Source: Clostridia bacterium (GTDB lineage Bacteria; Bacillota; DSM-521; Neomoorellales; SLTJ01). From it: a stretch of 64,000 nucleotides of DNA. Under the pieces are notes generated by a model that did not search any database, had not been told where the DNA came from, and was given only the letters and a program-made list of their open reading frames with translations. Positions within the stretch are counted from its first letter, which is position 1; the number at the start of each line of letters is the position of its first letter. The DNA lies in contig SLTJ01000021.1 of the NCBI GenBank assembly GCA_004347685.1, positions 3,157 to 67,156 on the forward strand, written 5' to 3'. The position numbers and the translations under genes are program-made. Of this stretch, positions 41,116-61,554 are shown piece by piece.

Positions 41116-41207
41116 TGCTTCTCTCCCCCTCCGCAAAGCTCATTATCAATCTGCTAAAGTTAAATCCGGCCAGAATGCTGGCTGCTTCCTGCCCTTGCTG
41201 GTCTTTT

Positions 41208-41225
41208 CCCCCCCCCCCCCCCCCC
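41208..41225. repeat. C18 (G18 on the coding strand) homopolymer in the permease/SBP intergenic spacer
   Basis: Directly visible run of 18 C. Confidence 0.9.
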
Positions 41226-41229
41226 TCCA

Positions 41230-43151: not shown

Positions 43152-43273
43152 CAATCCTCTCACCCCCTCAGCTCTAAATTTCAACATCGAGATCTTGAAG
43201 CTCCATCATGGGGGTTAACACTTCGCCATACTTACATAAAATCCTCCTCTTTGGGTAAATGAATTTCATCTAT

Positions 43274-43320
43274 TAGAAATGCTACTTAGAAATGCTACTT
43301 GCTACCGTTACATACCGTTA
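43274..43320. repeat. TAGAAATGCTACT x2 and TACCGTTA x2 in the AT-rich region upstream of the first ABC operon
   Basis: Copies at 43274/43287 and 43303/43313. Confidence 0.7.
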
Positions 43321-43607
43321 AATTAACTGCCTCCCATAAGAGTAAGCGAACCAATAGCATGGTAATAGTGTCTAAACCAAGAGTCAAATAGAAAAAGTTC
43401 CATGGTGCTATCTATGGGATCAATACTTCGACAGCGGTAAACAGCGCCCAGATAGCGAGACAGCTTTCTGGCTATGCCCCACTAAGACTAAACGGCCGGC
43501 GTCAGGAGGAACATCAGGCCCTCATGAGAGAGGCCGTTATACGGAGTGGGCACCGGGGGCCCGGTCCCCGGGCCGGGCTGGTTCCCGGTGACCATGGCCA
43601 AGTTCTG

Positions 43608-44651: not shown

Positions 44652-45582
44652 CGCCGGCCGTAACCACGCCTGTATGGAAAACCGCAGCGTTGGTGTTCAG
44701 ATAGCTCTGCATGGCTGCCACCAGAGTTCGGATACCGTAATTTTCCTCCCGGCTGCGTAGGTAAAATAAAGAAATATAACGGTGGAAGTCCACCGGCGGG
44801 TTGATCCGCACTTCCACCAGGGTGCCTTCCTTGAGCTCCCGCCCCAGGGCCAGCCTGGGGACAAAGGCCACGCCCATGCCCTGCATCACCAGCGTCTTAA
44901 TGGCCTCAAAGTTATCCAGTTCCAGGATGATATTCGGGTGCGGCACGGCCGGGCTCGTCAGGAAGGCCTCCACCGGGCGCCAAAAGGCCGAATCCCTGAT
45001 ATAGGCCACAATGGGGAGCTTGCGCAGGGCCCGCCGGGAAACGCTCCCCTGTACGACCACAGGGTGGCGCGGGCTGGCCACCAGAACCACATCGTCCTCG
45101 GTTATCGGCACCAGGCTCACGTGGCGGTGCACCTTGACAAAATTGGCGTTGGCAAAGGCAGCGTCAACTATACCACTTTCTACCAAATGAACTACTTCGG
45201 GGCTGGTACCGGTGCGCAGGGAAACCTCCAGATTGGTATTGGCGCGCAAGTACTTGAGGAAATGGGGCAGGCAATAGGAGCTGATGATGGGCGTGCTGGC
45301 CACGGAAATGCTGGTTACCGGCCCGGCGGCATTATTGATTGCGTGGCAACCTTCTTCAATGAGGGACAGGGCTTGTTCTATGTAGGGCAAAAGTTTTTTC
45401 CCGGCCGCCGTTAGCTGCGTTGTCCGGCCACGGGTAAAAAGTACTTGCCCCAGTTCCTTCTCCAGGGCCTGGATGCGGGCCGTTAAAGAAGGCTGGGTTA
45501 TGTAGAGTTTCTCAGCGGCCCGGGAAAAACTCTGCTCCCTGGCTACGGCCAAGAAGGCTTCTAGCTGAGATAGTTGCAACAT
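44623..45582 (-). CDS. LysR family transcriptional regulator
   Basis: SFSRAAEKLYITQPSLTARIQALEKELG..LF.R....LT.AG, plus substrate-binding domain. Confidence 0.95.
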   Translation of the reverse strand: MLQLSQLEAFLAVAREQSFSRAAEKLYITQPSLTARIQALEKELGQVLFTRGRTTQLTAAGKKLLPYIEQALSLIEEGCHAINNAAGPVTSISVASTPIISSYCLPHFLKYLRANTNLEVSLRTGTSPEVVHLVESGIVDAAFANANFVKVHRHVSLVPITEDDVVLVASPRHPVVVQGSVSRRALRKLPIVAYIRDSAFWRPVEAFLTSPAVPHPNIILELDNFEAIKTLVMQGMGVAFVPRLALGRELKEGTLVEVRINPPVDFHRYISLFYLRSREENYGIRTLVAAMQSYLNTNAAVFHTGVVTAGDEAGQEIYG

Positions 45583-45796
45583 TCAGCCCCCTCTCATGAC
45601 CATTCCGGCAGGTTAGACACCAAGTACCTCAGGCTAACACATTATACCACAAAAAGGTGGCTATGTAACTGCCTTTTGGCGTACGGACCTACAGAAGAGG
45701 GCCAGCAACCAAACTTTCTCCGGGCGGCGCAAGGCAGAGGAACGACCCATGCCCTGTGTCACCCGGAAATCTCACTCCGTCACGGGCAACGGCGGG

Positions 45797-47056
45797 CTAT
45801 TTTGCAATGGCCCACTGCCCCTTGTCGTCAATCAAAAGCATGATCACGGCATCAGGTACGTGGACACCTATGCGGTCTTCCTTGGTCAGCTTAATAGTCC
45901 CGCCCACACCCACTACTTCGTGCGCACCTTCCAGCCATTCATTAATCTTGGCCCGGTCAGGCCCTGCCGCCTTGAGGGCTTCCGCTGCCACCATCATGGT
46001 GTCAAACCCGTACATGGCCAGCCCCTCGGGGTCAGTCTTAGTGGAATCGTGGAGAATGCTATATATCCTTTCATAGAAGTTCTTTTGCGGGTCGTTGTTC
46101 GGCAACTGGCCGGCAACTACAAACTTGGGGCTTAATACCAGGGCCGTACCCGGCTTGTATTCGGCCATCATCCTCTTCATCTCGTTATGCGTGTTCCCTA
46201 TCGAAATGATCATCGGGACATTTTCCAGGCCCACCTGGTTTAATTGCTTGCGGACCTGATACACTGCCTGGCCGGCCACCATGGTAAAGATCAGGTCGGG
46301 CTTGTCACCCTTCAACTTGATAAGCTGTGGAGTATAATCGATGTCCTTGGCCCCTATGCGGATCCGAGCCGTCTGCTTGATGTCGGGGTTTTGCCCGAAG
46401 TACTTGGTAAACAAACCCTCCATCAAATCGCCTAATGAATCCGTGGAAGTTATGGTAGCCACCTTGGTGGCACCGTGTGCCTTCGCGTACTCAAAGTACT
46501 TGATCGCCTGCATTTCCAGGTGGGGAGTCGGCGCCCATGACCACTTAACTCCCTGGCTGGGCTCATAGCCGCCGGAGGTGGAGATCATGGGCACGCCGAC
46601 TCGCTCGGCCACCGCTTCGGCCGCGTACGCGGTAGGCGTAAATGTCGGACCGATTATGACCGGAACGCCTTGCAGCGCCAGATCTTCCGCCGCCCTGGCG
46701 GCCAAATCGGGACTGGATTGGTCATCAATCTCCACCAGCTTCACGGGGTGCCCGTCTATTTCGTTGCCTAATACCTCCAAGGCCGCCTTGTACCCGGCCT
46801 GCTGGGACTTGCCACCAGCCGCTTTATCTCCCGTAAGGCTGTTGATAACGCCAATCTTATACTCAGAGGTCTCGGAAGTGGCAGGCGCACTTTGTCCAGT
46901 AGTCCCACCAGGGCTGGCAGGTTCAGTTTGCGCCCCTGCAGGTGACTTTGACGGGGTGGCCGGTGAGCTCGAGCCGCCGCCGCACCCGGCTAGGACTAAT
47001 ATAAAAGCTCCCGCCAGCAGCGCTAACCATAGGGTTTGTTTTTTCCGGAAACTCAT
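45797..47056 (-). CDS. LIV-type ABC substrate-binding lipoprotein (second system)
   Basis: LVLAGC lipobox, IGVINSLTG..A..G, IDDQSSP, IIGP. Start placed at MSFRKK. Confidence 0.88.
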   Translation of the reverse strand: MSFRKKQTLWLALLAGAFILVLAGCGGGSSSPATPSKSPAGAQTEPASPGGTTGQSAPATSETSEYKIGVINSLTGDKAAGGKSQQAGYKAALEVLGNEIDGHPVKLVEIDDQSSPDLAARAAEDLALQGVPVIIGPTFTPTAYAAEAVAERVGVPMISTSGGYEPSQGVKWSWAPTPHLEMQAIKYFEYAKAHGATKVATITSTDSLGDLMEGLFTKYFGQNPDIKQTARIRIGAKDIDYTPQLIKLKGDKPDLIFTMVAGQAVYQVRKQLNQVGLENVPMIISIGNTHNEMKRMMAEYKPGTALVLSPKFVVAGQLPNNDPQKNFYERIYSILHDSTKTDPEGLAMYGFDTMMVAAEALKAAGPDRAKINEWLEGAHEVVGVGGTIKLTKEDRIGVHVPDAVIMLLIDDKGQWAIAK

Positions 47057-47081
47057 CACTATGCACCTCCATTTTTTGTAA

Positions 47082-47801
47082 TTATCCCAAGTACTTTTCC
47101 AACAATCTGCTGCGATCCCTAAAATAATCCGTGGGTCCTTCATCTACGACTTTGCCACCGTTAAGTACGTAAGCCCGTTGGGCTACGGTTAGCGCTACGT
47201 TGGCCGACTGCTCAACCAATAGCACCGAAATCCCTTCTGTGGGAAGCCTGGCTACTACATCCATGATAGCCTGAACTACCACAGGCGCCAGTCCTAAAGA
47301 CGGCTCGTCCAACAACAAAACTTTCGGCCTGGCCATCAATCCCCGACCGATGGCCAGCATCTGCTGCTCGCCTCCGCTCAAAGTACCGGCATACTGGTGC
47401 TGCCTCTCCTTCAGGCGAGGGAACAGGGTAAACACCTGGGCTTTTCTCATTTCCACCTCCCCCCTCTGGTTATGGTATAAGTACGCACCCAGCATAAGAT
47501 TATCCAAAACCGTCAACCCGCTGAAAACCTCGCGTCCTTCGGGCACATGAATTATGCCGGCGCGCACCACCTTGTCATATCCGGTGCCTGTCAGTTCCTG
47601 ACCACAGTAATCAACCCTACCCCTCCTCCTTACCAGACCGGATAACGCCCGCAGGAGGGTCGTCTTCCCAGCGCCGTTAGGGCCGAGCAAAGCCACACAC
47701 TCGCCTTCTCGGATATGAAGACTAACACCGAACAGTACCTGAACATCACCATAAAAGGCATTAAGCCCATCAATTTGTAGGATCGTTCGTCTGGGTTCCA
47801 A
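47082..47801 (-). CDS. LIV-type ABC ATP-binding subunit (LivF-like)
   Basis: GPNGAGKTT, VPEGREVF, LSGGEQQML, LDEPSLGLAP. Confidence 0.94.
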   Translation of the reverse strand: MEPRRTILQIDGLNAFYGDVQVLFGVSLHIREGECVALLGPNGAGKTTLLRALSGLVRRRGRVDYCGQELTGTGYDKVVRAGIIHVPEGREVFSGLTVLDNLMLGAYLYHNQRGEVEMRKAQVFTLFPRLKERQHQYAGTLSGGEQQMLAIGRGLMARPKVLLLDEPSLGLAPVVVQAIMDVVARLPTEGISVLLVEQSANVALTVAQRAYVLNGGKVVDEGPTDYFRDRSRLLEKYLG

Positions 47802-48603
47802 AATAAGCTACCTCCACCTTTTTGTCTGCTCTTACTTCGGCTGGAGACCCCTCAGCTATTTTGCTACCGTGATCCAGGACAATCACCTGATGGCAAAGGC
47901 GCATGACCATGGCGACACGATGCTCTACTAGGACAATAGTGATCCCTCTTGCGTTAAGCATCTCTAGAACGGAACCAAGCGCGTCCACTTCGGCGTCATT
48001 TAGTCCGGCAGCCGGTTCATCCAGCAGCAGAACCCGCGGCTCCCCCGTGAGGCACCGGGCAATTTCCACCAGCCTACGGTCGCCCACGGGAAGAGCATCG
48101 GCCCGCTGAAGCGCCCTGGAGGCCAGCCCAAGTATGCGAAGGTATTCCATGGCTTTTTCTCTTATTTCCCTTTCCTGGTGGCGAATGACCGGAAATGAGA
48201 GCATGCTGGCAAATAGATTCGTTTGGCTGTGGTTATAAGCCCCCACCATAACGTTGTCTAGCACCGTGAAGTTTCCGGCCGAAAACAGCTTGCTGGTCTG
48301 AAACGTTTTGGACATTCCCAGCCGGCTACGAGCATGAGGGGTAAGAGCGTTTACCTTCCGGCCGAAGTAGAAAACTTCCCCTTTATCAGGTCTCATCAGC
48401 CCTGACAGAATGTTTAGCAGGGTAGTCTTACCAGCCCCGTTCGGGCCTATAACCCCGAAAATCTGTCCCTGCCAGACGTTCATATTTACCCTATTCAATA
48501 CCTGGAGACCTCCAAAGGCTTTGGTTACATCTAAGACCTGTAAGGCGGGGACGTCCCCACCGGCGCTATCAATTCTCGAGGTCAATTTCTTCACTCCCGG
48601 CAC
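47770..48603 (-). CDS. LIV-type ABC ATP-binding subunit (LivG-like)
   Basis: GPNGAGKTT, KTFQ, LLDEPAAG, LVEH. Confidence 0.93.
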   Translation of the reverse strand: MPGVKKLTSRIDSAGGDVPALQVLDVTKAFGGLQVLNRVNMNVWQGQIFGVIGPNGAGKTTLLNILSGLMRPDKGEVFYFGRKVNALTPHARSRLGMSKTFQTSKLFSAGNFTVLDNVMVGAYNHSQTNLFASMLSFPVIRHQEREIREKAMEYLRILGLASRALQRADALPVGDRRLVEIARCLTGEPRVLLLDEPAAGLNDAEVDALGSVLEMLNARGITIVLVEHRVAMVMRLCHQVIVLDHGSKIAEGSPAEVRADKKVEVAYFGTQTNDPTN

Positions 48604-49540
48604 CTAGACTCACGCTTTTCGTCTTTGAGCGAAAGTGGATTTCGCTAATGCCATGGGGCAAGAAGATCACCAGCAGAATAACGATTAGCCCTGTCAGCAA
48701 GACCTGCCATTGCCCAGACATACTGGCCACCTCGGGGAGAATGCGCCAGATGATGGCCCCCCATATGGCCCCGAACAAGTTGGTGACACCCCCCAGCATG
48801 CTGATTATTATGAGCTCCACGGACAGCAAAACACCAAACTGGCTCGGAGAAACAAACAATAAGTAGTGGGCTAGCAAACTCCCGCTAATACCGGTGAATA
48901 CACTACTGAGCAAGAATATCAGCATCTTCCAGCGGCCGACATCTATACCGATAGTTTCAGCCGCCGTTTCGTCACTGCGGATGGCCAGGAGCACTCGCCC
49001 CACCTGCGACCGCGCCAAGTTGTTGGCCAAGAGCAACACTACCAAGGCTATGCCCCATACCAGGTAGAAAAACGCGGTGCGGCCAAAGGGCACTCCCCCT
49101 AAGCTTAGCATAGGAATGCCAGGGATGCCACTTTCGCCTTTGGTAAAATCATACCAGCCGGTCAACACGTTCTGCACCAGAATACCAAAGGCCAAAGTGG
49201 CAGCGGAAAAATAAAAGCCTTTTAGCTTGAGTAAGGGGTACCCTACTGCGAGCCCGGATATTAAACAAAGGATGATACCCACCAGCATGGCTTCTCCTGG
49301 ACTAGCCCCATAGCGGGTGGTCATGATGGCTGTGCTATAAGCCCCGATGGCCATAAAGGCCCCCTGCCCGAGGGAGGCCTGCCCGGTGTACCCCATAAGC
49401 AAGGTGATGGCTAGCGCGGCAACTGTATATATCCCTGCACTCAGTACTATGGTAAATAAAATGCTCTGACCCAATAGAACAGGGGTCAAGATAACGAGCA
49501 ATAAGGCTAGCAGCAAGCTTAATCGTTCTCTTGGGTCCAA
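48569..49540 (-). CDS. LIV-type ABC permease (LivM-like)
   Basis: LLMGYTGQASLGQGAF, LKGFYF, GRVLLAIRSDE.AA. Confidence 0.92.
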   Translation of the reverse strand: MDPRERLSLLLALLLVILTPVLLGQSILFTIVLSAGIYTVAALAITLLMGYTGQASLGQGAFMAIGAYSTAIMTTRYGASPGEAMLVGIILCLISGLAVGYPLLKLKGFYFSAATLAFGILVQNVLTGWYDFTKGESGIPGIPMLSLGGVPFGRTAFFYLVWGIALVVLLLANNLARSQVGRVLLAIRSDETAAETIGIDVGRWKMLIFLLSSVFTGISGSLLAHYLLFVSPSQFGVLLSVELIIISMLGGVTNLFGAIWGAIIWRILPEVASMSGQWQVLLTGLIVILLVIFLPHGISEIHFRSKTKSVSLGAGSEEIDLEN

Positions 49541-49541
49541 C

Positions 49542-50408
49542 TCAAATCCTCCCGAATAAGCCAGTCGGCCTGGCTATTAGCAGTACGATCAAAAAGGCCA
49601 GGGTAATAGCGTCCTTGAACGAGGCCGAAATATACCCAGCCACGAAGGCTTCCATCAAGCCCAGAAGAAGGCCTCCGACCACGGCAGCGGTCGCGTTTCC
49701 CATCCCTCCCAGGACGGCAGCAATAAAACCTTTAAGGGTCAGCGACAGACCAGTACCAAAATCGATGGTTATTAGGGGAGCAAATACGACCCCCGCGATG
49801 GACACCAGACAGGCGCTGATGATATAGGTAATGCGGATCATGCGGCTGACGTTAATCCCCATGAGTTTGGCAGCCGTTGTGTTTTGAGAGCAGGCCATAA
49901 TGGCCTTGCCGTAAATGGTCTTGCTGATAAAAATGTAAACAAATACCAAAGCCAAAACACCTATTACGATTACCCATAAAGATTGACTTGGCAAGCTGGC
50001 TTCGCCGAAGCGTATTGCTTCCATTTGGCTGAACCGCGGCAGGCTGTGCGCCTCCCGACCCCATACGTTAAGAAACAAACCCTGGAACACGAAAACCGCT
50101 CCTACCGCGCCAATCAGCACCGAGGTCTCCTCGCCAGCGTACAGCGGCTCCATTACCAGGCGTTCCTGGACCAGGGAGGCTCCAGCAGCAACTACCATGG
50201 CCAGAATTAGGCTAGGTACCAAATCCAGATGCGAGGCAGTCAGGCTAAGCACACAAAATATACTCAGCACCGCGTACTCGCCCAGTGCCAAATTAGCCTT
50301 CCTGGTCACGTTATAGATCAAGGTAAGAGCCAAGGCCAGAAGAGCGTAAACACTGCCAGACGTAATGCCAGAAAATATGTATTGTAAGATCAAGGTACTA
50401 GTGGCCAT
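49542..50408 (-). CDS. LIV-type ABC permease (LivH-like)
   Basis: GITSGSVYALLAL, NLALGE, LKGFIAAVLGGMGN. Confidence 0.92.
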   Translation of the reverse strand: MATSTLILQYIFSGITSGSVYALLALALTLIYNVTRKANLALGEYAVLSIFCVLSLTASHLDLVPSLILAMVVAAGASLVQERLVMEPLYAGEETSVLIGAVGAVFVFQGLFLNVWGREAHSLPRFSQMEAIRFGEASLPSQSLWVIVIGVLALVFVYIFISKTIYGKAIMACSQNTTAAKLMGINVSRMIRITYIISACLVSIAGVVFAPLITIDFGTGLSLTLKGFIAAVLGGMGNATAAVVGGLLLGLMEAFVAGYISASFKDAITLAFLIVLLIARPTGLFGRI

Positions 50409-50763
50409 AGCGGTATCTCCTTGGACTGAGATTTCTGCAACCCACCTTTTCCGCACCGACACCGTTCCCCTCTACAGTGCCTGCCTATCCCAAAGAATGA
50501 CCTTTCGAGCTATATCCCCTCCCCTCGGAAGCATGTTGAAGAATTCCCGGAGGCCGTTCAAGAACGAGCATGGCGCGAAGAGCACTCCAGCCTGAGGGAG
50601 CGCATCTCGGCGGTAGTGAGCGCCGTGGGCCGGCTGGGTGAAGCCGGGCGAAGTTTTTCAACCGCCGCCTAGGAGCTTTTCCGCAGCCTCGCTGACAGTG
50701 CACCGCACTCGCGCCCGCAGAATGAGGCCTTTTCTGGATGACATACACAAATTATCACGTACG

Positions 50764-50778
50764 ATAGGTCATGGCTAT
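50764..50778. promoter_or_regulatory. LysR-type recognition box ATAG-N7-CTAT
   Basis: Dyad containing T-N11-A, centred about 65 bp upstream of the predicted TSS of the 50801 promoter. Confidence 0.6.
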
Positions 50779-50800
50779 AATTATATTCAACATTCAGCAG

Positions 50801-50829
50801 TTGTCAAGGGGAATTTGCTATGATATAAT
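50801..50829 (+). promoter_or_regulatory. SigA promoter of the CoA-transferase-like operon
   Basis: TTGTCA-17 nt-TATAAT with an extended TG. Confidence 0.8.
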
Positions 50830-50964
50830 CCATACGTGAGGTAGATTTTATAGATAGAAAGGGGGCAAATGCGGAGGCTTTGGTTCAAGACAATAGCCTA
50901 GCAAGCTTATGGAAATCGCGCCATGGAGAATGACGCAACACTATAATTCAGGGGGTAAGTTCCA

Positions 50965-51867
50965 GTGCTCAGGCAATCAAAGGTTCGCAGCCTGGCCGAG
51001 GCCGTATCCCTGATCAACAACGGGGATACAGTGGTGGTCTGCGGGTTCAACCTGCAGAACAAGCCCATGGCCCTGGTCAGGGAAATCATCCGGCAGAAGA
51101 AGAAGAACTTGTGGCTGGTGACGGCCGGCCCGTCCAGCATCGACGCCGACCAACTCATTGGTGGCGGCTGCGTGCGCAAGGTGGCCAGCGTGTCCATCAG
51201 CGCCGAACGCTTCGGCCCCATCGGCCCCTGCTTCCGCCGGGCCGTGCAGCAGCAGAGCATTGAGATCTGGGAGTGCGAGCAGGGGATCATGACCGCCGCC
51301 CTCCGCGGCGCTATCCAAGGGGTGCCTTTTGTCCCCACCGTGGCCGGCCTGGGCGGGGACTTCGTCAAGGTCAACCCCGACCTGAAGGTGATCCAGGACC
51401 CCTTCGAGGGCCGGCCGGTGGTGGCGGTAAAAACCATCAAGCCTGACGTGGCCCTGATACATACCCTCATCGCTGACGAATTTGGCAACGCTAGGCTGGA
51501 AGGCGGCATGTTCTTTGACGAGTTGGCGGTCCGCGCCGCCAAGAAGGTTATTGTCAGCACGGAAAACGTGGTGCCTACCGCGGTTATCCAACATGAGCCC
51601 CGCCTCACCAGGGTATTCTCCCACATGACGGCCGCGGTGGTCGAGGTTCCCTATGGCAGCCATCCCACTGCCTGCCACGGTGCTTACACCTTCGACGAGG
51701 AGGCCTGCGGTGAATACATTAAGGCCGCCCGCTCCGGGCCGGATGGCTTCCAGGAATACGCCGACAAGTACATCTCCGGCGCGCCGACACAAATGGAGTA
51801 CCTGAACCTGTTCGGTGTCGAGCGCCTGTTGAATATCCGCACGAAAGTGAGGGTGGGAGACATATGA
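50965..51867 (+). CDS. Class I CoA-transferase-fold alpha subunit (GctA/IpdA-like)
   Basis: SLAEAVSLI..GD.V...G, PMALVREIIRQ, GVPFVP..GLG.D, PDVALIH...AD.FGN. Confidence 0.9.
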   Translation: MLRQSKVRSLAEAVSLINNGDTVVVCGFNLQNKPMALVREIIRQKKKNLWLVTAGPSSIDADQLIGGGCVRKVASVSISAERFGPIGPCFRRAVQQQSIEIWECEQGIMTAALRGAIQGVPFVPTVAGLGGDFVKVNPDLKVIQDPFEGRPVVAVKTIKPDVALIHTLIADEFGNARLEGGMFFDELAVRAAKKVIVSTENVVPTAVIQHEPRLTRVFSHMTAAVVEVPYGSHPTACHGAYTFDEEACGEYIKAARSGPDGFQEYADKYISGAPTQMEYLNLFGVERLLNIRTKVRVGDI

Positions 51868-52649
51868 GCCAGGGCTATACCATTTCCGAACTCATGGCCT
51901 GCGTTTTTGCCCGGGAAATAAAGGACGGGGAGCTGGGCGGCTGCCCGGGGGTGCGCTCTGAGGTGCCGCTGGCCTCAGTGCGGCTGGCCCAGAGGATGCA
52001 CGCCCCCAATACCACCTGTTACTATGGCGCCATAGTATATAACACCGACGCCCCCTTGAGCAAGTTCGCCACTGAGTACGACCGGATTATCGGCGCTGAG
52101 GCCTCGGTGGCCACCTACGAATGGTTTGACACCCTGCACCGGGGGGATATTGACTTCTTCTTCGTCGGCGGCATGCAGGTAGACATGTACGGCAACCTGA
52201 ACCTTGTCTGCCTAGGAGACTGGAAAAAGCCCACCCTACGGGGGCCGGGCTCGGCAGGGTTGAACACCGTCACCTTTGCTCGCCGCCACTTCATTTGGAT
52301 CAACGAACATACCAGCCGGGTCTTCGTGCCCAAGGTGGACTTTATCTCCTGCCCGGGCTACCTGGACGGCCCGGGAGCCAGGGAAGGTGCCGGCCTGCGG
52401 TGGGGCGGCCCGTCCATCGTGGTATCGCCCCTGGCGGTAATGGATTTTGACCAGGAGACGAAAAGGATGCGCCTGCGCTCGGTACACCCCGGAGTGACCG
52501 TAGACGAGGTCAAGCAGAATACCGGCTTTGAACTGATTATCCCGGACAGCGTGCCCCAGACCCCCGCGCCCTCGGAGGAGGAACTGCGGGTTCTGCGCAC
52601 CGAAGTAGACCCGGCCGGCATCCTGCGGAACGAAGAACCGGTGGGATAG
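51864..52649 (+). CDS. Class I CoA-transferase-fold beta subunit (GctB/IpdB-like), canonical Glu apparently absent
   Basis: ELMA...AREI.DG, LAQRMHAPN, DFFFVGGMQVDMYGNLN, LRGPGSAG, FVPKVDFI, LRSVHPG. Confidence 0.9.
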   Translation: MSQGYTISELMACVFAREIKDGELGGCPGVRSEVPLASVRLAQRMHAPNTTCYYGAIVYNTDAPLSKFATEYDRIIGAEASVATYEWFDTLHRGDIDFFFVGGMQVDMYGNLNLVCLGDWKKPTLRGPGSAGLNTVTFARRHFIWINEHTSRVFVPKVDFISCPGYLDGPGAREGAGLRWGGPSIVVSPLAVMDFDQETKRMRLRSVHPGVTVDEVKQNTGFELIIPDSVPQTPAPSEEELRVLRTEVDPAGILRNEEPVG

Positions 52650-52657
52650 CTCCCCTG

Positions 52658-52697
52658 CCCGGCCCCGCGCCCTTACGGCCGGGGCCGGGTTTCTTTT
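52658..52697 (+). terminator. Rho-independent terminator
   Basis: CCCGGCCCCG...CGGGGCCGGG followed by TTTCTTTT. Confidence 0.75.
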
Positions 52698-52741
52698 ACA
52701 GGCGTGAAAAGCCAGCAGCGAGTGACTTCTTCTCAAAGGAG

Positions 52742-53950
52742 ATGTTTACGATGTTACCCCTCGAAGATATAAGAGTGCTCGATCTCAGCCATGCCGCAGC
52801 CGGACCTTACTGCTCCATGCTCCTGGCCGATATGGGGGCCGAGGTAGTAAAGATCGAACCCGCCCACGGGGAGCATTTCCGCCAAGTCCTAGGCAGCAGC
52901 ATTTTCGTCAACCTAAACCGCAACAAAAGGGGCATTGTGGTCAACATGGCCACCCCGGAGGGGAAAGATATCGTCCTGAAGCTGGCCCACCAAAGCGACG
53001 TCATGCTGGAAAGCTTCACCCCCGGGTCGGTAGACCGGCTAGGCCTGGGTTACGAGGCCATTAAAGAAAGCAACCCCGGGATAATTTACGCCTCCATCTC
53101 CGGCTTCGGCCAGACCGGCCCCTACCGCGACCGTCCGGGCTACGACGTGGTGGCCCAGGCCATGTCCGGCCTGATGCTGGCCACCGGCACACCAGACGGC
53201 CCCCCGGTGCGGATCGGTACTTCCCTCATTGATTTCAGCGCCGGCCTGTTCGTAGCCTTCGGCATCATCCTGGCCCTGCGCAACCGGGAGAAGACCGGAC
53301 AGGGGTGCCGCGTTGACATGTCCCTGCTGGAAACAGCCATCTCCTGGATGAACTACTGGGTGACCTACTACTCCATGTACCAGAAACTACCGCAACGGTG
53401 GGGCTCGGCCCACGAGATGTTCGCCCCCTACCAGGTCTTTGCCACCAAAGACAAGCCCATTTTCGTGGGCGTTTCCACCAACAAATTCTTCGAGGCCTTC
53501 TGCCGCGCCTTTGGGCTGGAGCACCTGCTGGAGGAAGAAAAATTCAGCACCAACGAACTCCGCTGCCAGCACCGGGATGAACTGGTGCCCCTGGTGGCCG
53601 AAGCGCTGAAAAACTACTCTTCACAAGAGCTGCTGGCCAAACTCGAGGAGCTGGGCATCCCCAACGCCCCGCTGTTGAACATTGACGAGGTGATAGAGCA
53701 CCCCCAGGTGCAGGCCCGGGACATCATCGCCGATATGGAGCATCCCCTCTATGGCCCGGTAAAAATGACGAAATTCCCGGTGCATATGTCCAATATGGAC
53801 CGTCCCCTGCGCGCGCCTGCGCCCCTCCTGGGAGAGCATACCGAGGAAGTCCTGCTCAGGCTCGATTACAGCCCGGCGGAAATCGAAGCCCTGGAGCAAA
53901 AGGGCGTGATCCTGCGGGCCAGGAAGGACCAGGCGACCAGGCCGGTATAA
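52742..53950 (+). CDS. Class III CoA-transferase (CaiB/BaiF family)
   Basis: RVLDLS...AGPY...LLADMGAEVVKIEP, NRNKR, ISGFGQTGP, GYD.VAQAMSG, APLLGEHT. Confidence 0.95.
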   Translation: MFTMLPLEDIRVLDLSHAAAGPYCSMLLADMGAEVVKIEPAHGEHFRQVLGSSIFVNLNRNKRGIVVNMATPEGKDIVLKLAHQSDVMLESFTPGSVDRLGLGYEAIKESNPGIIYASISGFGQTGPYRDRPGYDVVAQAMSGLMLATGTPDGPPVRIGTSLIDFSAGLFVAFGIILALRNREKTGQGCRVDMSLLETAISWMNYWVTYYSMYQKLPQRWGSAHEMFAPYQVFATKDKPIFVGVSTNKFFEAFCRAFGLEHLLEEEKFSTNELRCQHRDELVPLVAEALKNYSSQELLAKLEELGIPNAPLLNIDEVIEHPQVQARDIIADMEHPLYGPVKMTKFPVHMSNMDRPLRAPAPLLGEHTEEVLLRLDYSPAEIEALEQKGVILRARKDQATRPV

Positions 53951-53968
53951 ATTGATTAGCTCATTATC

Positions 53969-53997
53969 TTGTCAGGTCGGGATTTTTATGATATGGT
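53969..53997 (+). promoter_or_regulatory. SigA promoter upstream of the PHP gene
   Basis: TTGTCA-17 nt-TATGGT with an extended TG. Confidence 0.6.
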
Positions 53998-54042
53998 AGG
54001 AATAGATAAGCCCGGGATCAAGAGGATGCTGGAGGCAGGCCA

Positions 54043-54549
54043 TTGACCAGGTTAAAGCTCGACCTACATATGCACCCCGAGGAGATGAGTTCCTTCGCAC
54101 CCCTCACCGTGGCCGTGGTGAAGAACGTGCTGGAAAGCGCCCTGGACCACGGCCTGGACGGGATAGCCGTCACCGAGCACGAAAACCTGGCCTACGGCCT
54201 GAAGTTCGTCGAGTTGGTACAGGAGCATTTTCCCCATTACCCGCTGCTGGTGCTCCCAGGAAGAGAGATAAGGGTTAAATACCACGAGGAGGTTGAGGTT
54301 TACCTCCCCGAAGGTAAGGTGTTTCGTTTTCTGGCCCACCCGGCCACCTCCATCGAGTTCAACGGCAACATAGGCGGCATCGAAGTGGAAAACAGCATGC
54401 ACTACATAAGCCGCCGTCACGTAGAGGAGATGCTGGCGGCCTCCCCTCACCTCCTGGCCTTGCGGAACAGCGACGCCCACCACTACGAGGATGTGGGCAA
54501 GCTGTTTTCGGAAGTGGCCTGGAATGAATTACTGGCCCGGGCAAAGTGA
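54043..54549 (+). CDS. Small PHP-domain metallophosphoesterase-like protein
   Basis: DLHMH, GLDGIAVTEH, PGREI, AHP, NSDAH. Confidence 0.85.
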   Translation: MTRLKLDLHMHPEEMSSFAPLTVAVVKNVLESALDHGLDGIAVTEHENLAYGLKFVELVQEHFPHYPLLVLPGREIRVKYHEEVEVYLPEGKVFRFLAHPATSIEFNGNIGGIEVENSMHYISRRHVEEMLAASPHLLALRNSDAHHYEDVGKLFSEVAWNELLARAK

Positions 54550-54697
54550 AAACGTTGGCAGGGAGCCTGACCACCACCGGCCAGCAGCTCCAGCAACACA
54601 GACGAAAAATATTGAGGAGAAGAAAGGAGTGAGCAGCCTGGCCGGCGCAACCTCATGCATAAGTACTGAGGCTTGTCATGCCGTTGTCAGGAGATTC

Positions 54698-55918
54698 ATG
54701 AACCAGAATGATATCGTGATCACCAGCGCCTGCCGTACCCCTTTCGGCCGCTACGGCGGGTCGCTTAAGGATATGGACTATTTCGACCTAGGGGCCATCC
54801 CCATGCGGGAGGTACTGCGACGGGTGGGTCTGGACCCCGCCAGCGGCGTGGTGGAGGAGGTGTACTGGGGGGTGGGTGACACCTCTGCCTGCAAGGACGT
54901 GTTTACGCCCGTGGCTGCCCGCCAGACATTACTCAAGGCCGGTCTGCCCCCCACTACTCCCTCTACCAGCCTGGACAAGGCGTGCGTGTCCGCCATGTCG
55001 GCCGTAAAGCTAGGTTGCACGGGCATTAAGGCCGGCGAAATCCGGGTAGCCATTGGCGGTGGCGCCACTTCCTTCAGCCAGGAGCCCCTTATTCTGCGGC
55101 GGCTGCGTTTTGACGGCTTCCGCCTGGGCAACGTGGTCATGGAAGACCCGCTTTTTGAGCTCGGCTACAAGGATTTTGCCCCGGTGGCCGTAGATGCCGG
55201 CAACGTGGCCCTCAAGCACGGCGTGACCCGGGAGCAGCAGGACGAGTGGGCGGTTCGCAGCCACCAGAAGTACGGCGAGGCCTGGGCCGCGGGTAAATTC
55301 CAGGAGGAAATGATCCGTCTGGAAATCCCACAAAAAAAGGGCGGGCCCAAAGTCCTGGAGATTGACGAGCAGTACCGGGCCGATACCACCCTGGAAAAGC
55401 TGGCCAAGCTGCCTCCCATCTACGGCAGCCCCACTTGCACCGCCGGCAACGCGCCGGGGCTGAACGACGGCGCAGCCGCCATCCTCATTATGACCCGCGG
55501 CCGGGCGGCCGAATTGGGGTTGAGCCCGTTGGCCACCATTGTCAGCATGGTTTCCATAGCCACCGAGCCTTCCCTGATCGCCGAGACCCCGGCCTACGCC
55601 ATCCAGAAGGCCCTCCGGTTGGCCGACCTTACCCTGGACGATATTGCCATAATAGAAATAAACGAGGCCTTTGCCGCCATGCCCCTGGTATCCACTAAAC
55701 TCCTGGCTGATGGGGACGCGGCCAAACTGGCCTTACTCCGGGAAAAGACCAATATCAACGGCAGCGCCATCGCCATCGGCCACGCCAATGCCGCTAGCGG
55801 GGCACGCATCATGATGAACCTGGTCTATGAGCTGCGCCGCCGTGGTGGCGGCTATGCAGCCGGGGCCATCTGCGGCGGCCTGGGCCAGGGAGATGCCTGC
55901 ATTCTGCGGGTGGATTAA
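54698..55918 (+). CDS. Thiolase family protein (acetyl-CoA acetyltransferase-like)
   Basis: RTPFG.YGG, KAC.S, TAGNA.GLNDGAAA, INEAFAA, GH...ASGAR, ICGGLGQG. RBS AGGAG before ATG 54698. Confidence 0.93.
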   Translation: MNQNDIVITSACRTPFGRYGGSLKDMDYFDLGAIPMREVLRRVGLDPASGVVEEVYWGVGDTSACKDVFTPVAARQTLLKAGLPPTTPSTSLDKACVSAMSAVKLGCTGIKAGEIRVAIGGGATSFSQEPLILRRLRFDGFRLGNVVMEDPLFELGYKDFAPVAVDAGNVALKHGVTREQQDEWAVRSHQKYGEAWAAGKFQEEMIRLEIPQKKGGPKVLEIDEQYRADTTLEKLAKLPPIYGSPTCTAGNAPGLNDGAAAILIMTRGRAAELGLSPLATIVSMVSIATEPSLIAETPAYAIQKALRLADLTLDDIAIIEINEAFAAMPLVSTKLLADGDAAKLALLREKTNINGSAIAIGHANAASGARIMMNLVYELRRRGGGYAAGAICGGLGQGDACILRVD

Positions 55919-56000
55919 TTTCCGCACGGCAAAAAAGGAGGTATAACCTGGCCGGGCACCCCAGTCCTCATGGGCCGGCCGCGGCCAGGTATGGGCCAAT

Positions 56001-57191
56001 ATGCCAGAAAGTAAAAAGGGTTCAGCGGAAATCTTCCACCCCCAGTTTATCCTCATTATGCTGGTTAACGTACTCATGTTCATCAGCTTTTTTTCCATGT
56101 TGCCCACCATGGCCGGCTACGCCCAGACCATGGGAGCTTCTACCAGCGGCGTCGGTTTTATCATGGGGCTTTTGACCTTCACCGCCGTCTTTTTCCGCCT
56201 CTTCGCCGGTCGGGAAATAGACCGCTCCGGCTCCCGCCGGGTGCTCGTCTTTAGTACGGCCGTTATTGTGGCCGTCACCTTCCTTTACCCGCAAGTTCAC
56301 AACCTGACGTACCTGGCCTTGTTGCGCGTGCTCCACGGCCTGGGCTGGGGCGGCTTTATCGCCGTCACCCACGTTATAGCCGCCGACATTTCGCCGGCCG
56401 CCAGGCAGGGCGAGGCCATGGGCTACTTTACCCTCACCATCAACCTGGCCATGGCCTTTGCCCCGGCCGTCGGCCTGGCCTTGGCCGGCCGTTTGGGCTA
56501 CCCAGGGCTTTTTTACCTGGCCGGGGTGCTGATCGTGGCCGACCTACTCCTCTGCCTGGCCGTGGCCGAGCCGCCGCGGGAACGCTCACCGGAGCCCAGC
56601 CCCCTGATTGCCACCGCCTCCTTGCCGGCGGCTGCGGTTATCGTCCTCGTGACCCTGGGCTATGCCGGCATTATCAACCTGCTACCCCTGTTTGGCGCCG
56701 AACGCGGCCTCACCCAGTTAGGGTGGTTCTACGCTGTCTTCTCGGTGGCCCTGATCGCCAGCCGACCCGTTGGCGGCCGCCTCTCAGACCGCTACGGTCG
56801 CTTCGCCGTCCTCTGGCCCGGCATACTCCTGGTGGCCATGGGGCTGGCCCTGCTGGCCCAGACCCATGGCCTGGGCCTGTTCCTGACCGCTGCCGCTGTC
56901 TACGGTATCGGCTTTGGGTTTGTCCACCCCAGCCTGCTGGCCCTGACCATAGACCTGACACCGCCGCGCCAGCGAGGTGCAGCCATGTCCACCTTCTATT
57001 CGGCCTACGACCTGGGGGTAGGGGGTGGATCCTTCCTCTTCGGCAGCGTGGCTGCAGCCAGCGGCTTTACCCTGACCTATTGGGCCGGGGCCTGCCTGGC
57101 TGCTCTTTCCCTGCCCTTTCTCTCCCTGGCTGCCCGCAGGATGCAGCCCGGCGCCAGGCCGAGTGCCAGCCAGGCCGGCCTGGGGAAATAG
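56001..57191 (+). CDS. MFS transporter
   Basis: About 12 TM segments; GREIDRSGSR and GRLSDRYGR loop motifs. Confidence 0.92.
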   Translation: MPESKKGSAEIFHPQFILIMLVNVLMFISFFSMLPTMAGYAQTMGASTSGVGFIMGLLTFTAVFFRLFAGREIDRSGSRRVLVFSTAVIVAVTFLYPQVHNLTYLALLRVLHGLGWGGFIAVTHVIAADISPAARQGEAMGYFTLTINLAMAFAPAVGLALAGRLGYPGLFYLAGVLIVADLLLCLAVAEPPRERSPEPSPLIATASLPAAAVIVLVTLGYAGIINLLPLFGAERGLTQLGWFYAVFSVALIASRPVGGRLSDRYGRFAVLWPGILLVAMGLALLAQTHGLGLFLTAAAVYGIGFGFVHPSLLALTIDLTPPRQRGAAMSTFYSAYDLGVGGGSFLFGSVAAASGFTLTYWAGACLAALSLPFLSLAARRMQPGARPSASQAGLGK

Positions 57192-57363
57192 GACCAGCCG
57201 GAACCCGCGGAACTGAGCATGACACTCACGTCCACACGCGCCCCAGGCCTTCTAAATGGCTGCAGAGAGCATCCCTGTCGTGTCGCGAATGGCCAAAAAC
57301 GCGGGCGTTAAGCTAGTCACCCTTTCCGGGCGTGCGTCAGCTCTGCGGAACCCACCCGGCACC

Positions 57364-57392
57364 TTGACAGAACCTTTCACCCAGAGTATAAA
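57364..57392 (+). promoter_or_regulatory. Near-consensus SigA promoter for the Uma2 gene
   Basis: TTGACA-17 nt-TATAAA. Confidence 0.8.
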
Positions 57393-57425
57393 TGGGATAA
57401 CACTACTGGTACGGAGGTGACCTCC

Positions 57426-58004
57426 ATGACCCAAGCCCAGACCCAGCCGCAGCCACCGGCCGGGGAAATAATCCTCTCTTACGACGACTACCTCAAGCTC
57501 CCGGAGGACGGCAACCGCTACGAAATCCTGGAAGGAGTGCTGTACGTGACCCCGGCCCCTGTACCCCGCCACCAGCGGGTTTTGCGCGATCTCAGCCATA
57601 TCCTCCACGGCTTTGTCTCGGCCAACAATCTGGGGGAGGTCTTCTACGCCCCCGTTGATGTCGTTTTCAGCCGCACCAGCGTCGCCCAGCCGGACCTCAT
57701 CTTTATCAGCCGGGAAAAACTGCACCTGATCACCGAAAAAAACATCGCCGGCCCGCCTGACCTGGTGGTGGAGATCCTCTCCCCTTCCACTTCCGAGCGG
57801 GACCGGCTGGTCAAGGCCCAGGTATACGCTAAGCATGGGGTAGACTACTACTGGCTCCTGGACCCGGAGACAAAAACCCTGGAAGAATACCGGCGGGAGG
57901 AAAAAACCTTCACCTTGTTGTCCGCGGTGCAGGGAGATAGCACCTTCTCCCCCAAGCTATTCCCTGGGCTGGAAATTGATTTGGGCCAGGTATGGGCGAA
58001 CTGA
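57426..58004 (+). CDS. Uma2 family (DUF820) PD-(D/E)xK putative endonuclease
   Basis: YDDY..LPEDG.RYEILEG, P.PRHQ, QPDL, PDLVVEILSPST, K..VYA..GV.YYW. RBS GGAGGTG. Confidence 0.92.
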   Translation: MTQAQTQPQPPAGEIILSYDDYLKLPEDGNRYEILEGVLYVTPAPVPRHQRVLRDLSHILHGFVSANNLGEVFYAPVDVVFSRTSVAQPDLIFISREKLHLITEKNIAGPPDLVVEILSPSTSERDRLVKAQVYAKHGVDYYWLLDPETKTLEEYRREEKTFTLLSAVQGDSTFSPKLFPGLEIDLGQVWAN

Positions 58005-58394
58005 TTAGATCGTCAGGGAATATACTCCGCCTCAGCAGGCTTCTCTGTCGAGCGGCCCTCATAGGAGCCGGTAAGAACACCTCCCGTTTCGCTCCATAAT
58101 ATGATGTATGCCCCTCCTTGTTCCACCAGGTAGGCCATGTGGGACAGCCCCAGGCCTAAAGTCAGAAGGGGTGGCGGGAGAAACCGGTACGCGGGGAAAC
58201 ATCCTGTCAGCTACCTGGGCAGCGGTCGTTGGCCGAGGGAGGTGATCTGTTTGATTTTGCCCCTGGCCTGGGATTACAGCGCTTCCTGGCCGCGGCCATA
58301 GCTGGAGCCTTAAAACCGTCTCAATCTAATCCGCAAGAAGATGATGAGACAGATCTGCTTTCTCTCCTATCACGTAACGCTCCTGATCTCTGGG

Positions 58395-60335
58395 CTATTT
58401 TATGGATACATTTTTAGTTTTCCACTGCCAGAGAACTGCCCCCACCAGAACAACAATACCTATCACATCTGTCTTCCACCCTGGTACTACGGCCAAAATG
58501 GAGCCGATAAGGATCAATATACGCGGCAGCCACTTACATTGGTGGAATAGAAAGCCCTGCAACCCGATGGCCAGGCCAGTACTTCCAATTAAGGCACTCA
58601 CGGCGGCGGTGGCAATTTCTACTGGCGTGCCAACTAGAAGAAACGCAGGATTGTAAGCAAAAACTAAGGGGGCCAGGAAGGTAACTATACCAAGCCTCGT
58701 GGCCTGCCACCCCACCTGCATGGGGTTAGCTTGAGCAATAGCCCCGGCCACATATGCTGCTGGTGCCACTGGGGGCGTTATACTGGCTGCCACCGCAAAA
58801 TAAAAGATGAAAAAGTGGGCCGCCAGGGGGATCATACCCATCTTGACGAGGGCGGGAGCCACCAGAGTAGCCAAAAGTATATATGCCCCAGACGTAGGAA
58901 GTCCCATGCCTAACAGGATGCAGGTTAACGCTGTAAGGACAAGGAGTACAAATAAATGACCGCCGGAAGCGGCTACTAATACACTGGAAAGCCTAAGGCC
59001 CAATCCTGTAAGATTTAGGGTACCAAGGATGATACCAGCCACCGCACAGACTACAGCCACATCCACCATGGATCTACCACCTTGCTCCAAGGCCTGAAAA
59101 ATGCTTTGCAGCTTTAGATGCCCTTTCTTACCTCTTACAAAAGTTACAAAAGCGCTAACCACTACAAGGGATGCCGCCGACCATAGAGCTGATAATTGAG
59201 GTGGATACCCTAATACCAGCAACAGGAAAATTAGAACAATCAGCGGGACAACAAATTGTATACCTTCTCCCAGGACATGCTGGAGCTTTGGTAAGTCCTC
59301 GCGAGGTAGCCCGCGTAGGCCCATTTTTACGGCTTCGATATCAACCATAACGAATAAGACGAGGAAATACAGAACCGCCGGGATGATTGCCGCTGAGGCA
59401 ATGATGCGAAAGGGTACCCCCAGGAATTCGGCCATCACGAAAGCCGCAATTCCCATTACCGGGGGCATGATCTGGCCTCCATTGGAGGCCACCGCTTCCA
59501 CCGCACCGGCAAAATGAGGCATGTACCCGGTTCGTTTCATGAGGGGAATGGTGAAGGAGCCAGTAGTTGCCACGTTACCCATGGCACTGCCGGAGATAGT
59601 GCCCATCAGGGCACTGGCAATCACAGCTATCTTTGCCGGACCTCCGCGAACATGCCCCATTATGGCTCGGGCAGCGCCTACAAAGAAGTTTGCTGCGCCA
59701 CTAGTTTCCAGGAAAGCAGCAAAGACCATAAAAGCTACGACTAAACTAGCCGATACACCTAAAATTGAGCCGTAAATACCGTCGGCCCACATCCCTACGT
59801 ACCTGGCAATCTGGTCTGGAGAATACTGAGGCGTCTGCAGGATAGGGCTGTAGCTGCCAAAGAAAGCGTAGAGCAACAATACTGTGGCTATAAGAGGAAT
59901 AACAAGCCCCATCCTCCGTCGCGTAGCCTCAAGAACAATTATTACCATGGTCCAAGTAAGGAATCTATCAATGAATTCCATGGACCCCATGGCCACGCGC
60001 TGCTCAGTAACTTCATTAAAGAGGAATAGGTACCCATTTGCTACCAAGGCTAGAATAATTAGCACAATATCATACCAGGGTATCCTATTCCTTTCCCTCC
60101 CTGTGAATCCTGCCGGCGTAACTAAGAAGGTGATAGCCAGTACCAACCCGAGATGCGCGGCCCGGTGGGGGACTGTAGCTATGTGGATGCCAAGAAGGTC
60201 AAAGAAGCCAATGAGGTACATTATGCTATACAAAGAGAATATGATAGATATAACTTTAAGGATACCGGCGGCTGCGCTTGATAATTCCCTGCCGGTGGCA
60301 CGTTCCTTTTCTTTCCTAGCCGTGTCCATAGCCAC
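58395..60335 (-). CDS. TRAP transporter fused permease (4TM/12TM, TAXI type)
   Basis: LEATRR, GGPAKIAV.ASAL.GTISGSA..NV.TTG.FTIP.M, ASNGGQIMPPVMG, GMGLPT, SITPPVA. Confidence 0.95.
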   Translation of the reverse strand: MAMDTARKEKERATGRELSSAAAGILKVISIIFSLYSIMYLIGFFDLLGIHIATVPHRAAHLGLVLAITFLVTPAGFTGRERNRIPWYDIVLIILALVANGYLFLFNEVTEQRVAMGSMEFIDRFLTWTMVIIVLEATRRRMGLVIPLIATVLLLYAFFGSYSPILQTPQYSPDQIARYVGMWADGIYGSILGVSASLVVAFMVFAAFLETSGAANFFVGAARAIMGHVRGGPAKIAVIASALMGTISGSAMGNVATTGSFTIPLMKRTGYMPHFAGAVEAVASNGGQIMPPVMGIAAFVMAEFLGVPFRIIASAAIIPAVLYFLVLFVMVDIEAVKMGLRGLPREDLPKLQHVLGEGIQFVVPLIVLIFLLLVLGYPPQLSALWSAASLVVVSAFVTFVRGKKGHLKLQSIFQALEQGGRSMVDVAVVCAVAGIILGTLNLTGLGLRLSSVLVAASGGHLFVLLVLTALTCILLGMGLPTSGAYILLATLVAPALVKMGMIPLAAHFFIFYFAVAASITPPVAPAAYVAGAIAQANPMQVGWQATRLGIVTFLAPLVFAYNPAFLLVGTPVEIATAAVSALIGSTGLAIGLQGFLFHQCKWLPRILILIGSILAVVPGWKTDVIGIVVLVGAVLWQWKTKNVSIK

Positions 60336-60377
60336 ACTCCCCCGTCTAATTACTTTCAGCCATGACCCATCCTCAAC

Positions 60378-61493: not shown

Positions 61494-61554
61494 AAGTTGA
61501 TGCCTCCTTTGGTCTTATTTCTGATCTCAACAAATTGCCGTAGCTCTAGAACAC

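Follow-up and report, generated by a model that had tools for sequence, protein, structure and literature searches.

A 64,000-nucleotide stretch of a Clostridia bacterium genome (contig SLTJ01000021.1, positions 3,157 to 67,156 of the forward strand; hereafter the window, at its full length) contains a pair of adjacent genes for two proteins, termed alpha and beta, of the kind that public annotation lists as 'glutaconate CoA-transferase subunit A/B' (CoA, coenzyme A). Judging from its active-site residues and its gene surroundings, this pair is probably not a canonical CoA-transferase and would act on the thioester which a neighbouring class III CoA-transferase forms from an imported (di)carboxylate. 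A fuller statement, in which alpha and beta catalyze decarboxylation of a dicarboxylyl-CoA in the manner of the AibAB enzyme, is favoured here as a tentative proposal that falls short of being probable, and the assignment as a decarboxylase in particular is held with slightly less assurance still. The coordinates of the pair, of its active-site positions and of the accompanying genes are compiled in Table 1.

Table 1. Features of the window with their positions, strand and supporting details.
Feature	Position	Strand	Details
MBL-fold hydrolase with C-terminal extension	43608-44651	-	Lactamase_B 1.2e-26
LysR-type regulator	44623-45582	-	HTH_1 and LysR_substrate
Liv/HAAT-type ABC importer, divergent from alpha/beta	45797-50462	-
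ABC binding protein	45797-47143	-
ABC ATPases	47082-47801 and 47770-48603	-
ABC permeases	48569-49540 and 49542-50462	-
Divergent sigma-70-like promoters in 500-bp intergenic region	50780-50829	both
Alpha subunit, GctA-like, 300 aa	50965-51867	+	GTG start, AGGGGG ribosome-binding site
Gln106 of alpha, column of IpdA Glu105	51280-51282	+
Beta subunit, GctB-like, 261 aa	51864-52649	+	ATGA stop/start overlap with alpha
Loop P28-G-V-R31-S-E33-V-P35 of the lineage, in beta	R31 51954-51956, E33 51960-51962	+
Gly55 of beta, catalytic-Glu column	52026-52028	+	phmmer and profile alignment
Glu79 of beta, clade-wide, G[AT]E motif	52098-52100	+
Class III (CaiB/BaiF) CoA-transferase, 402 aa	52742-53950	+	PF02515 4e-127
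Mini-PHP protein, 168 aa	54043-54549	+
Thiolase, likely start MNQNDIV	54698-55918	+	Thiolase_N, Thiolase_C, TIGR01930 358 bits
MFS transporter, closing the plus-strand run	56001-57191	+	PF07690 6.7e-51

Both genes are intact, translationally coupled via their overlap and subject to strong purifying selection, as dN/dS relative to the 95-97% identical pair of locus L109 amounts to 0.06 for alpha and 0.03 for beta, which is below the values of the neighbouring enzymes. Both subunits match PF01144 (CoA_trans), alpha with an E-value of 1.7e-22. Among solved structures in the PDB, phmmer ranks GctB (1poi_B, 1.4e-36) first for beta, followed by IpdB (1e-22) and AibB (1e-16), while alpha is nearly equidistant from AibA (7e-32), GctA (6e-31) and IpdA (3e-30). 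An AlphaFold2 model of beta (pLDDT 84.6) likewise retrieves 1poi_B as the best Foldseek match with a TM score of 0.88, AibB reaching 0.80/0.86 and IpdB 0.79/0.83. Both subunits thus have the CoA_trans fold, in the form typical of class I CoA-transferases from the glutaconate branch, and alpha and beta are proposed to make up a heteromeric enzyme.

The residue that defines this enzyme class, the glutamate of an E-x-G motif (Glu54 in GctB, Glu305 in SCOT), is absent from beta. An earlier note on the same DNA, based on an alignment by eye, had placed a glycine at the position of the catalytic Glu54 of glutaconate CoA-transferase, and this placement stands: in residues 46-58 (HAPNTTCYYGAIV) the segment CYYG55AIV aligns by phmmer such that Gly55 lies under the glutamate of the IIVESG segment of GctB (1poi_B), and a profile alignment of 142 family representatives puts Gly55 at the catalytic-Glu column again. 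Cys56 of AibB, the residue varied in PDB entries 5n00-5n03, shares this column. Moreover, the residues marking the Glu-bearing clade, namely E55 (100%), G56 (100%), S130-G131-G132 (86-100%) and T162 (100%), are all degenerate in the clade of the window's beta subunit, so that Gly55 is no alignment slip; in beta itself GSAG (A131) stands where the canonical GSGG oxyanion motif is expected. By sequence, therefore, decay extends over the whole transferase signature (E-G/GSGG/T162), beyond a single residue. With Gly55 at the nucleophile position and a degenerate E-G/GSGG signature, the ping-pong mechanism via glutamyl anhydride and glutamyl thioester would be lost; the further claim of the earlier note, that the pair is probably not a CoA-transferase, is supported to the extent that the pair is very probably no ping-pong CoA-transferase. 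In CtfAB, a Glu-to-Ser exchange at the catalytic position kills transfer and hydrolysis alike (PMC12400318).

In addition to this loss, the beta subunits of the lineage share a loop in which R31 is present in 9/9 and E33 in 8/9 members. The R31-S-E33 loop takes the place of the V-G-T-G-L-P loop of GctB (canonical G-x-G), which we take to correspond to G283-I284-G285 of SCOT by counting along the pig SCOT sequence rather than by a tool alignment. G283-I284-G285 is listed among the residues lining bound CoA and the acyl group (PMC12817287). In the model of beta, Glu33 follows directly after the strand formed by residues 24-27 and position 55 directly after strand 51-54; from this strand order, the Glu33 loop and the position-55 loop are probably close in space. 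A second acidic residue, Glu79, is conserved in 81% of the 64 tree rows of the clade. As a general replacement nucleophile, Glu79 was rejected: the Glu-bearing sister clade has both Glu79 and Glu55, and L027, L021 and C33 have no Glu79.

The alpha subunit had been suspected of supplying an IpdA-type catalytic glutamate through its WECEQG motif (residues 102-107; W102-E103-C-E105-Q106-G), a suggestion that does not hold, for the column in question is occupied by Gln106. At the position aligned to Gln106, 6co6_A has Glu and 6coj_A has Ala; we take 6coj_A as IpdA with the E105A exchange, and the IpdA catalytic residue is assigned here from these variant sequences in the PDB. The same column holds the glutamine of GctA (SQD) as well as that of the canonical 'PQGT' motif in a ScoA-like subunit from a related genome. 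By alignment it is also the position of SCOT Gln99 and TbASCT Gln110, a residue that hydrogen-bonds the acid substrate beside the catalytic glutamate (PMC12817287). The alpha subunits of the lineage are GctA-like at many further positions, and the motif x[ED]x[EDS]Q is common to the metagenome relatives L020, L021, L023, L028 and L109 and to a paralog on contig C33 of the same genome. Taken together, the pair possesses neither the catalytic glutamate of beta nor the IpdA-type glutamate of alpha, a state also found in AibAB, where Cys56 of AibB and a glycine of AibA occupy the two columns. To our knowledge, IpdAB and AibAB are the only Glu-less members of the fold with known function, and literature searches for a characterised member of the clade to which the window's pair belongs found none.

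The position of the pair within the family was derived from an exhaustive HMMER search with beta, which yielded 2753 related clusters at 50% identity, 188 of them below 1e-30; the best 150 clusters together with references entered a tree of which 142 rows were kept. Among these nearest representatives and references, the catalytic glutamate is kept in 31 rows only. A Glu-bearing clade that includes GctB comprises 31 rows, 29 with Glu, while the window's beta subunit falls in a clade of 64 rows (97% support), 63 of which are devoid of Glu and which stands apart from the GctB, IpdB and AibB clades. Membership in the groups of IpdAB or AibAB is not supported, the pair lying outside both the IpdB clade (23 rows) and the AibB clade (9 rows). 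When the states of both subunits were compared in 60 pairs from genome loci, 46 combined an IpdA-type alpha Glu with the lack of the beta Glu, 10 had the beta Glu together with Ala or Val at the IpdA column of alpha, and four had neither: the window, its ortholog L029, L027 and the outlier L104. The window, L029 and L027 form one lineage with 100% support. The apparent anti-correlation of beta Glu55 and alpha Glu106 (10 versus 46 pairs) carries no statistical weight, for the 10 beta-Glu pairs constitute a single clade and thereby a single event on the tree.

The 64-row clade also includes one sub-clade with Glu at the catalytic column, represented by L046, L052, L056, L058, L066, L068 and L077 as well as L037, L051 and L062. 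Its members belong to Alphaproteobacteria with an ADP-forming acyl-CoA synthetase and to Betaproteobacteria or Hydrogenedentota with a class III CoA-transferase. The residues following this glutamate are non-canonical, and alpha has Ala or Val rather than Glu or Gln; possibly, the sub-clade represents a reversion to transferase chemistry.

Immediately downstream of beta, the class III CoA-transferase retains its catalytic Asp (GYD135VVAQA) and has SUGCT (9br6, 6.6e-86) and YfdE (4hl6, 7.5e-85) as its closest solved structures; SUGCT, YfdE and Frc, its closest relatives, are dicarboxylate-activating. By homology, it is the probable activating enzyme of the system. The partnership with a class III enzyme, which had been pointed out before, extends to every ortholog locus whose contig reaches far enough (L025/L029, L026, L027, L028, L021 and L109/L110), the gene being adjacent to the pair in each. 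In general, a separate CoA-activating enzyme accompanies such pairs in 55 of 80 homologous loci, in 45 of them within 2.5 kb of beta. Clustering of all open reading frames (ORFs) from 82 loci, with antisense clusters set aside by eye, recovered AMP-forming CoA ligases in 32, enoyl-CoA hydratases in 25, class III CoA-transferases in 23, acyl-CoA dehydrogenases in 21 and ADP-forming acyl-CoA synthetases in nine loci. Sneathiella-type relatives are minimal, consisting of a transporter, a CoA-transferase and alpha/beta only.

Synteny defines a fixed module of the lineage, composed of a LysR regulator, an MBL hydrolase, a carboxylate transporter, alpha, beta, the class III CoA-transferase and a small protein termed mini-PHP. 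In L025/L029, from a Desulfitobacteriaceae metagenome-assembled genome with 82-84% identical subunits, LysR, an ABC importer, the class III CoA-transferase, alpha, beta and the 168-residue protein occur together. L109/L110, with 95-97% identical subunits, encodes an MBL protein, LysR, a TAXI-TRAP transporter, alpha, beta, the class III CoA-transferase and the 168-residue protein. The more distant L027 (48% identical) has alpha, beta, a 197-residue homolog of the 168-residue protein and the class III CoA-transferase, set in a PaaABCD-like oxygenase/ALDH/MaoC/thiolase cluster. The LysR orthologs are 52% (L025/L029) and 85% (L109) identical. The slot between LysR and alpha is filled by the ABC importer in the window and by TAXI-TRAP in L109, and this swap ties the transporter to the module and indicates a carboxylate substrate. 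The MBL protein of the window, whose matches in the PDB are 2zo4, LACTB2, glyoxalase II and the thioesterase PqsE (E-values from 1e-6 to 1e-18), has an 88% identical ortholog in L109, where it is found beside LysR too.

The mini-PHP protein matches the Pfam PHP family with 22.6 bits, under the cutoff of 26.4, and nevertheless possesses a full invariant set of PHP-type metal ligands (D7, H9, H11, E14, D39, E45, H46, E75, E85, H99, E114, N117, D144 and H146). Its AlphaFold2 model (pLDDT 95.2) best resembles the PHP domain of RNase AM (7ug9) and the pAp phosphatase Cv1693 (2yb1), a 3',5'-bisphosphonucleotide phosphatase. Homologs are encoded in L109/L110 (91% identity), L029 (66%) and L027 (37%, E 4e-20); among all alpha/beta loci fetched, the protein is confined to this lineage, and it occurs in 2/401 genomes of the phylum. 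Lineage members devoid of it are L020, L021, L023 and C33. On the strength of these sequence data, we regard mini-PHP as a genuine, previously unnoticed partner of the lineage. Distant relatives with 44-46% identity lie at L111:8001-8525 and L112:525-1043, between or beside enoyl-CoA hydratase genes and with no alpha/beta, and these neighbours suggest a wider link of the small PHP family with acyl-CoA metabolism.

The thiolase further downstream carries the Cys/His/Cys triad and is acetoacetyl-CoA-thiolase-like (PDB 7cw4, 8.7e-86). Its presence had been read as an echo of the partnership between IpdAB and a thiolase. The downstream position in the window was confirmed, its conservation was not: no thiolase start was found within 300 bp downstream of the mini-PHP gene in L029, the 84% identical ortholog, and the L109 contig ends at mini-PHP. 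A role of the thiolase as a conserved partner is accordingly left unsupported. The thiolase ORF opens at 54491, which is 69 codons before the likely start and still inside the 3' end of the mini-PHP gene; the resulting N-terminal extension (54491-54697), which is devoid of homology, is probably not translated.

These elements may be combined as follows. Under control of LysR, the transporter (ABC in the window, TAXI-TRAP in the close relative) would import a (di)carboxylic acid, which the SUGCT/YfdE-like class III CoA-transferase would convert to its thioester. Alpha and beta would subsequently transform the resulting acyl-CoA, the favoured reaction being an AibAB-like decarboxylation of a dicarboxylyl-CoA. 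In this reaction, alpha Gln106 and the remnant oxyanion loop would polarise the thioester, the free carboxylate would be bound by beta Arg31, and the enolate would receive its proton from beta Glu33. The acyl-CoA so formed might then either donate its CoA in the following round or pass to the thiolase. The data show that the glutamate is lost together with its signature, where the pair falls among the clades, that it is under purifying selection, that its partners are conserved and that the transporter was exchanged; the nature of the substrate as an acyl-CoA, the decarboxylation step and the parts assigned to R31, E33 and Q106 are inferred.

Several considerations favour decarboxylation. AibAB, the sole characterised member lacking both glutamates, is a decarboxylase; the retained glutamine and what is left of the oxyanion loop are well suited to enolate chemistry, as is the new arginine of the acyl pocket to a free carboxylate; and the accompanying CoA-transferase belongs to the dicarboxylate type. 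Furthermore, cycles that couple a CoA-transferase to an acyl-CoA decarboxylase are an established design, exemplified by Frc/Oxc and YgfH/YgfG. By analogy, the module would resemble these cycles in joining a Frc/YfdE/SUGCT-type class III CoA-transferase to a second enzyme acting on a dicarboxylyl-CoA, although this second enzyme has a CoA-transferase fold rather than a thiamine diphosphate (ThDP) or crotonase fold. AibA/AibB of Myxococcus xanthus (5MZW-5N03), a 3-methylglutaconyl-CoA decarboxylase, is similar to the pair in fold and in acting on a dicarboxylyl-CoA, which is also the substrate proposed here. It differs in that the two systems share about 23% identity and belong to separate clades, that alpha Gln106 is retained and the R31-S-E33 loop present in the window's pair, and that the window offers no mevalonate- or leucine-type context and no genes for AibC, LiuC or HMG-CoA synthase.

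On the other hand, a number of observations weigh against decarboxylation. Both the substrate and the activity of the pair are predictions. No obvious sink for a decarboxylated product is present in the cluster except the thiolase, whose conservation is unsupported, and the two hydrolase-fold partners, mini-PHP and MBL, fit a hydrolytic pathway better. Since most of the surrounding clade (46/60 pairs) carries the IpdA-type alpha Glu, the ancestral chemistry of the clade may have been hydrolytic. Beta Glu33 and Glu79 could equally well act as the general base of a hydrolysis or as a nucleophile that has moved. Of the 60 pairs, 11 have the GxRSE[IV]P loop, and the genes of all 11 are directly adjacent to a class III CoA-transferase gene, a correlation that comprises about two lineages only, and the loop-bearing L020, L023 and C33 have other activating enzymes or none in view. 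Finally, the nearest solved relatives of the ABC binding protein (7ylt, 3tx6, 3ukj, 4jb0 and 4ey3) are mostly Rhodopseudomonas binders of lignin-derived aromatic acids and not of aliphatic dicarboxylates.

The best-surviving rival, which we nonetheless consider unlikely, is a C-C or ring hydrolase of the retro-Claisen or hydratase type that resembles IpdAB and yields a beta-ketoacyl-CoA for the thiolase. Its base could be beta Glu33, beta Glu79 or alpha Glu103/105, or else water might be activated by the metal centre of mini-PHP. IpdAB (Rv3551/Rv3552; RHA1; ScdL1L2), the hydrolase that cleaves the ring of COCHEA-CoA, shares with the pair the fold, the lack of the beta Glu and a thiolase that follows; in the IpdAB-FadA6 sequence, the thiolase acts after IpdAB (PMC6678751). 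IpdB is also the second-best solved relative of beta in sequence, the IpdA-type Glu is retained by the majority of the surrounding clade, and mini-PHP and MBL, both hydrolase folds, are conserved with the module. This reading is opposed by the residue of 6co6 and 6coj that is taken as IpdA Glu105, which is Gln106 here and in all members of the lineage. The pair furthermore lies outside the IpdB clade, whose representative in this genome is instead the C25 paralog, the thiolase lacks support from L029, and the steroid ring C/D genes ipdC, echA20, fadA6 and KstR2 are absent from the window.

Somewhat less credible is the view that the pair is still a CoA-transferase, either by means of a nucleophile that migrated to beta Glu33 or Glu79, or by an intramolecular shift of CoA between the two carboxyls of a dicarboxylate, for which an anhydride of the substrate would suffice and no enzyme nucleophile would be needed. 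The relevant comparison is GctAB of Acidaminococcus fermentans (1POI), which has the same two-subunit architecture, provides the best match of beta in both sequence and structure, and shares with alpha the active-site glutamine and many GctA-specific residues. The presumed spatial proximity of Glu33 to the position-55 loop would fit a relocated nucleophile. For the nucleophile-free variant, a precedent has been proposed in the class III enzyme ThnP, namely intramolecular CoA transfer without a nucleophile (PMC11659651), and if the class III partner loaded the 'wrong' carboxyl, the existence of two CoA-transferase-type enzymes per module would be accounted for. However, Glu54, GSGG and the G-T-G loop of the GctAB beta subunit are replaced by Gly55, GSAG and R-S-E, the window's pair belongs to another clade with good support, and the E-G/GSGG/T162 signature is wholly decayed. 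Glu79, found alongside Glu55 in the sister clade and absent from L027 and L021, is no replacement, and for an intermolecular transferase the near-constant adjacent activating enzyme would be redundant.

It is highly improbable that the pair is a catalytically dead acyl-CoA-binding scaffold or regulatory subunit that hands the CoA ester, for instance, to the mini-PHP or MBL hydrolase, as the loss of both known catalytic residues, the strict co-conservation of a metal-hydrolase-like partner in the sub-lineage and the activity of the nearest mini-PHP folds on adenosine 3',5'-bisphosphate, a moiety also present in CoA, are countered by dN/dS values under those of the partner enzymes, by new invariant polar residues in the active-site loop and by lineage members without mini-PHP.

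In a wider perspective, alpha and beta might form a new four-part catabolic module with mini-PHP and the class III CoA-transferase; its CoA-transferase fold, deprived of both known catalytic glutamates, would have a rebuilt active site, in which Arg31 and Glu33 replace the glycine loop, and a reaction undescribed for this fold. This is a tentative possibility, for which a nucleophile-free decarboxylation cycle of dicarboxylyl-CoA and a cleavage assisted by metal, with the PHP subunit bound in a complex, are candidate reactions. If true, the pair would rank alongside IpdAB and AibAB as a third functional class and provide a key to the re-annotation of hundreds of 'CoA-transferase subunit A/B' families. 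Once its reaction was defined, the fold would gain a third chemistry, and pathway reconstructions that count such pairs among the CoA-activating enzymes of anaerobes and archaea would be corrected. Concrete, testable handles are provided by the R-S-E loop and the mini-PHP partner.

The genome harbours five GctAB-like pairs, none of which has the beta catalytic Glu. The four paralogs besides the window's pair are located at C33:245-1993, C9:37285-39071, C25:40587-42323 and C35:16-1479 plus C46:128-412. The C25 paralog belongs to the IpdB clade and has the IpdA-type alpha Glu, C33 is of the Gln type like the window, and in C9 and C35/C46 the alpha column is occupied by Phe. At C33:245-19285, alpha/beta are accompanied by a sigma-54 activator, two PaaK-like CoA ligases, a Liv-type ABC importer with a binding protein resembling that of the window, an epimerase, and hydantoinase/acetophenone-carboxylase-like A and B subunits; this cluster possibly represents a related aromatic-acid pathway. 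At C9:29658-46505, alpha/beta are situated amid two thiolases, two 3-hydroxyacyl-CoA dehydrogenases, a short-chain dehydrogenase/reductase, acyl-CoA dehydrogenases and an enoyl-CoA hydratase, together with proteins of 467 and 498 residues that look like subunits of a benzoyl-CoA reductase or a 2-hydroxyacyl-CoA dehydratase.

With respect to transcription, the intergenic region between the importer and alpha features divergent promoters, TTGTCA-17-TATAAT with an extended TG on the plus strand and TTGACA-16-TATAAT on the minus strand (8 sites versus 1.9 expected). A search for Rfam elements in 43000-58500 found none, and hence no riboswitch or leader RNA that would name a ligand. The GC-rich part of this region, at 50485-50750, has a single, implausible ORF of 87 residues on the minus strand.

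Further transport and activation genes lie at some distance from the module. Between a gene at 34807-36195 and the MBL gene, the minus strand of 36346-43187 encodes a long-chain acyl-CoA ligase and a second Liv-type ABC importer; in L109 the genes flanking this block adjoin each other, and the block is therefore an insertion/deletion difference. At 58395-63750, likewise on the minus strand, a TAXI-TRAP system (binding protein 60378-61493, fused permease 58395-60335) is found beside an ADP-forming acyl-CoA synthetase (61555-63750). This TAXI system is only 36% identical to the one that precedes alpha/beta in L109 and is thus not its ortholog.

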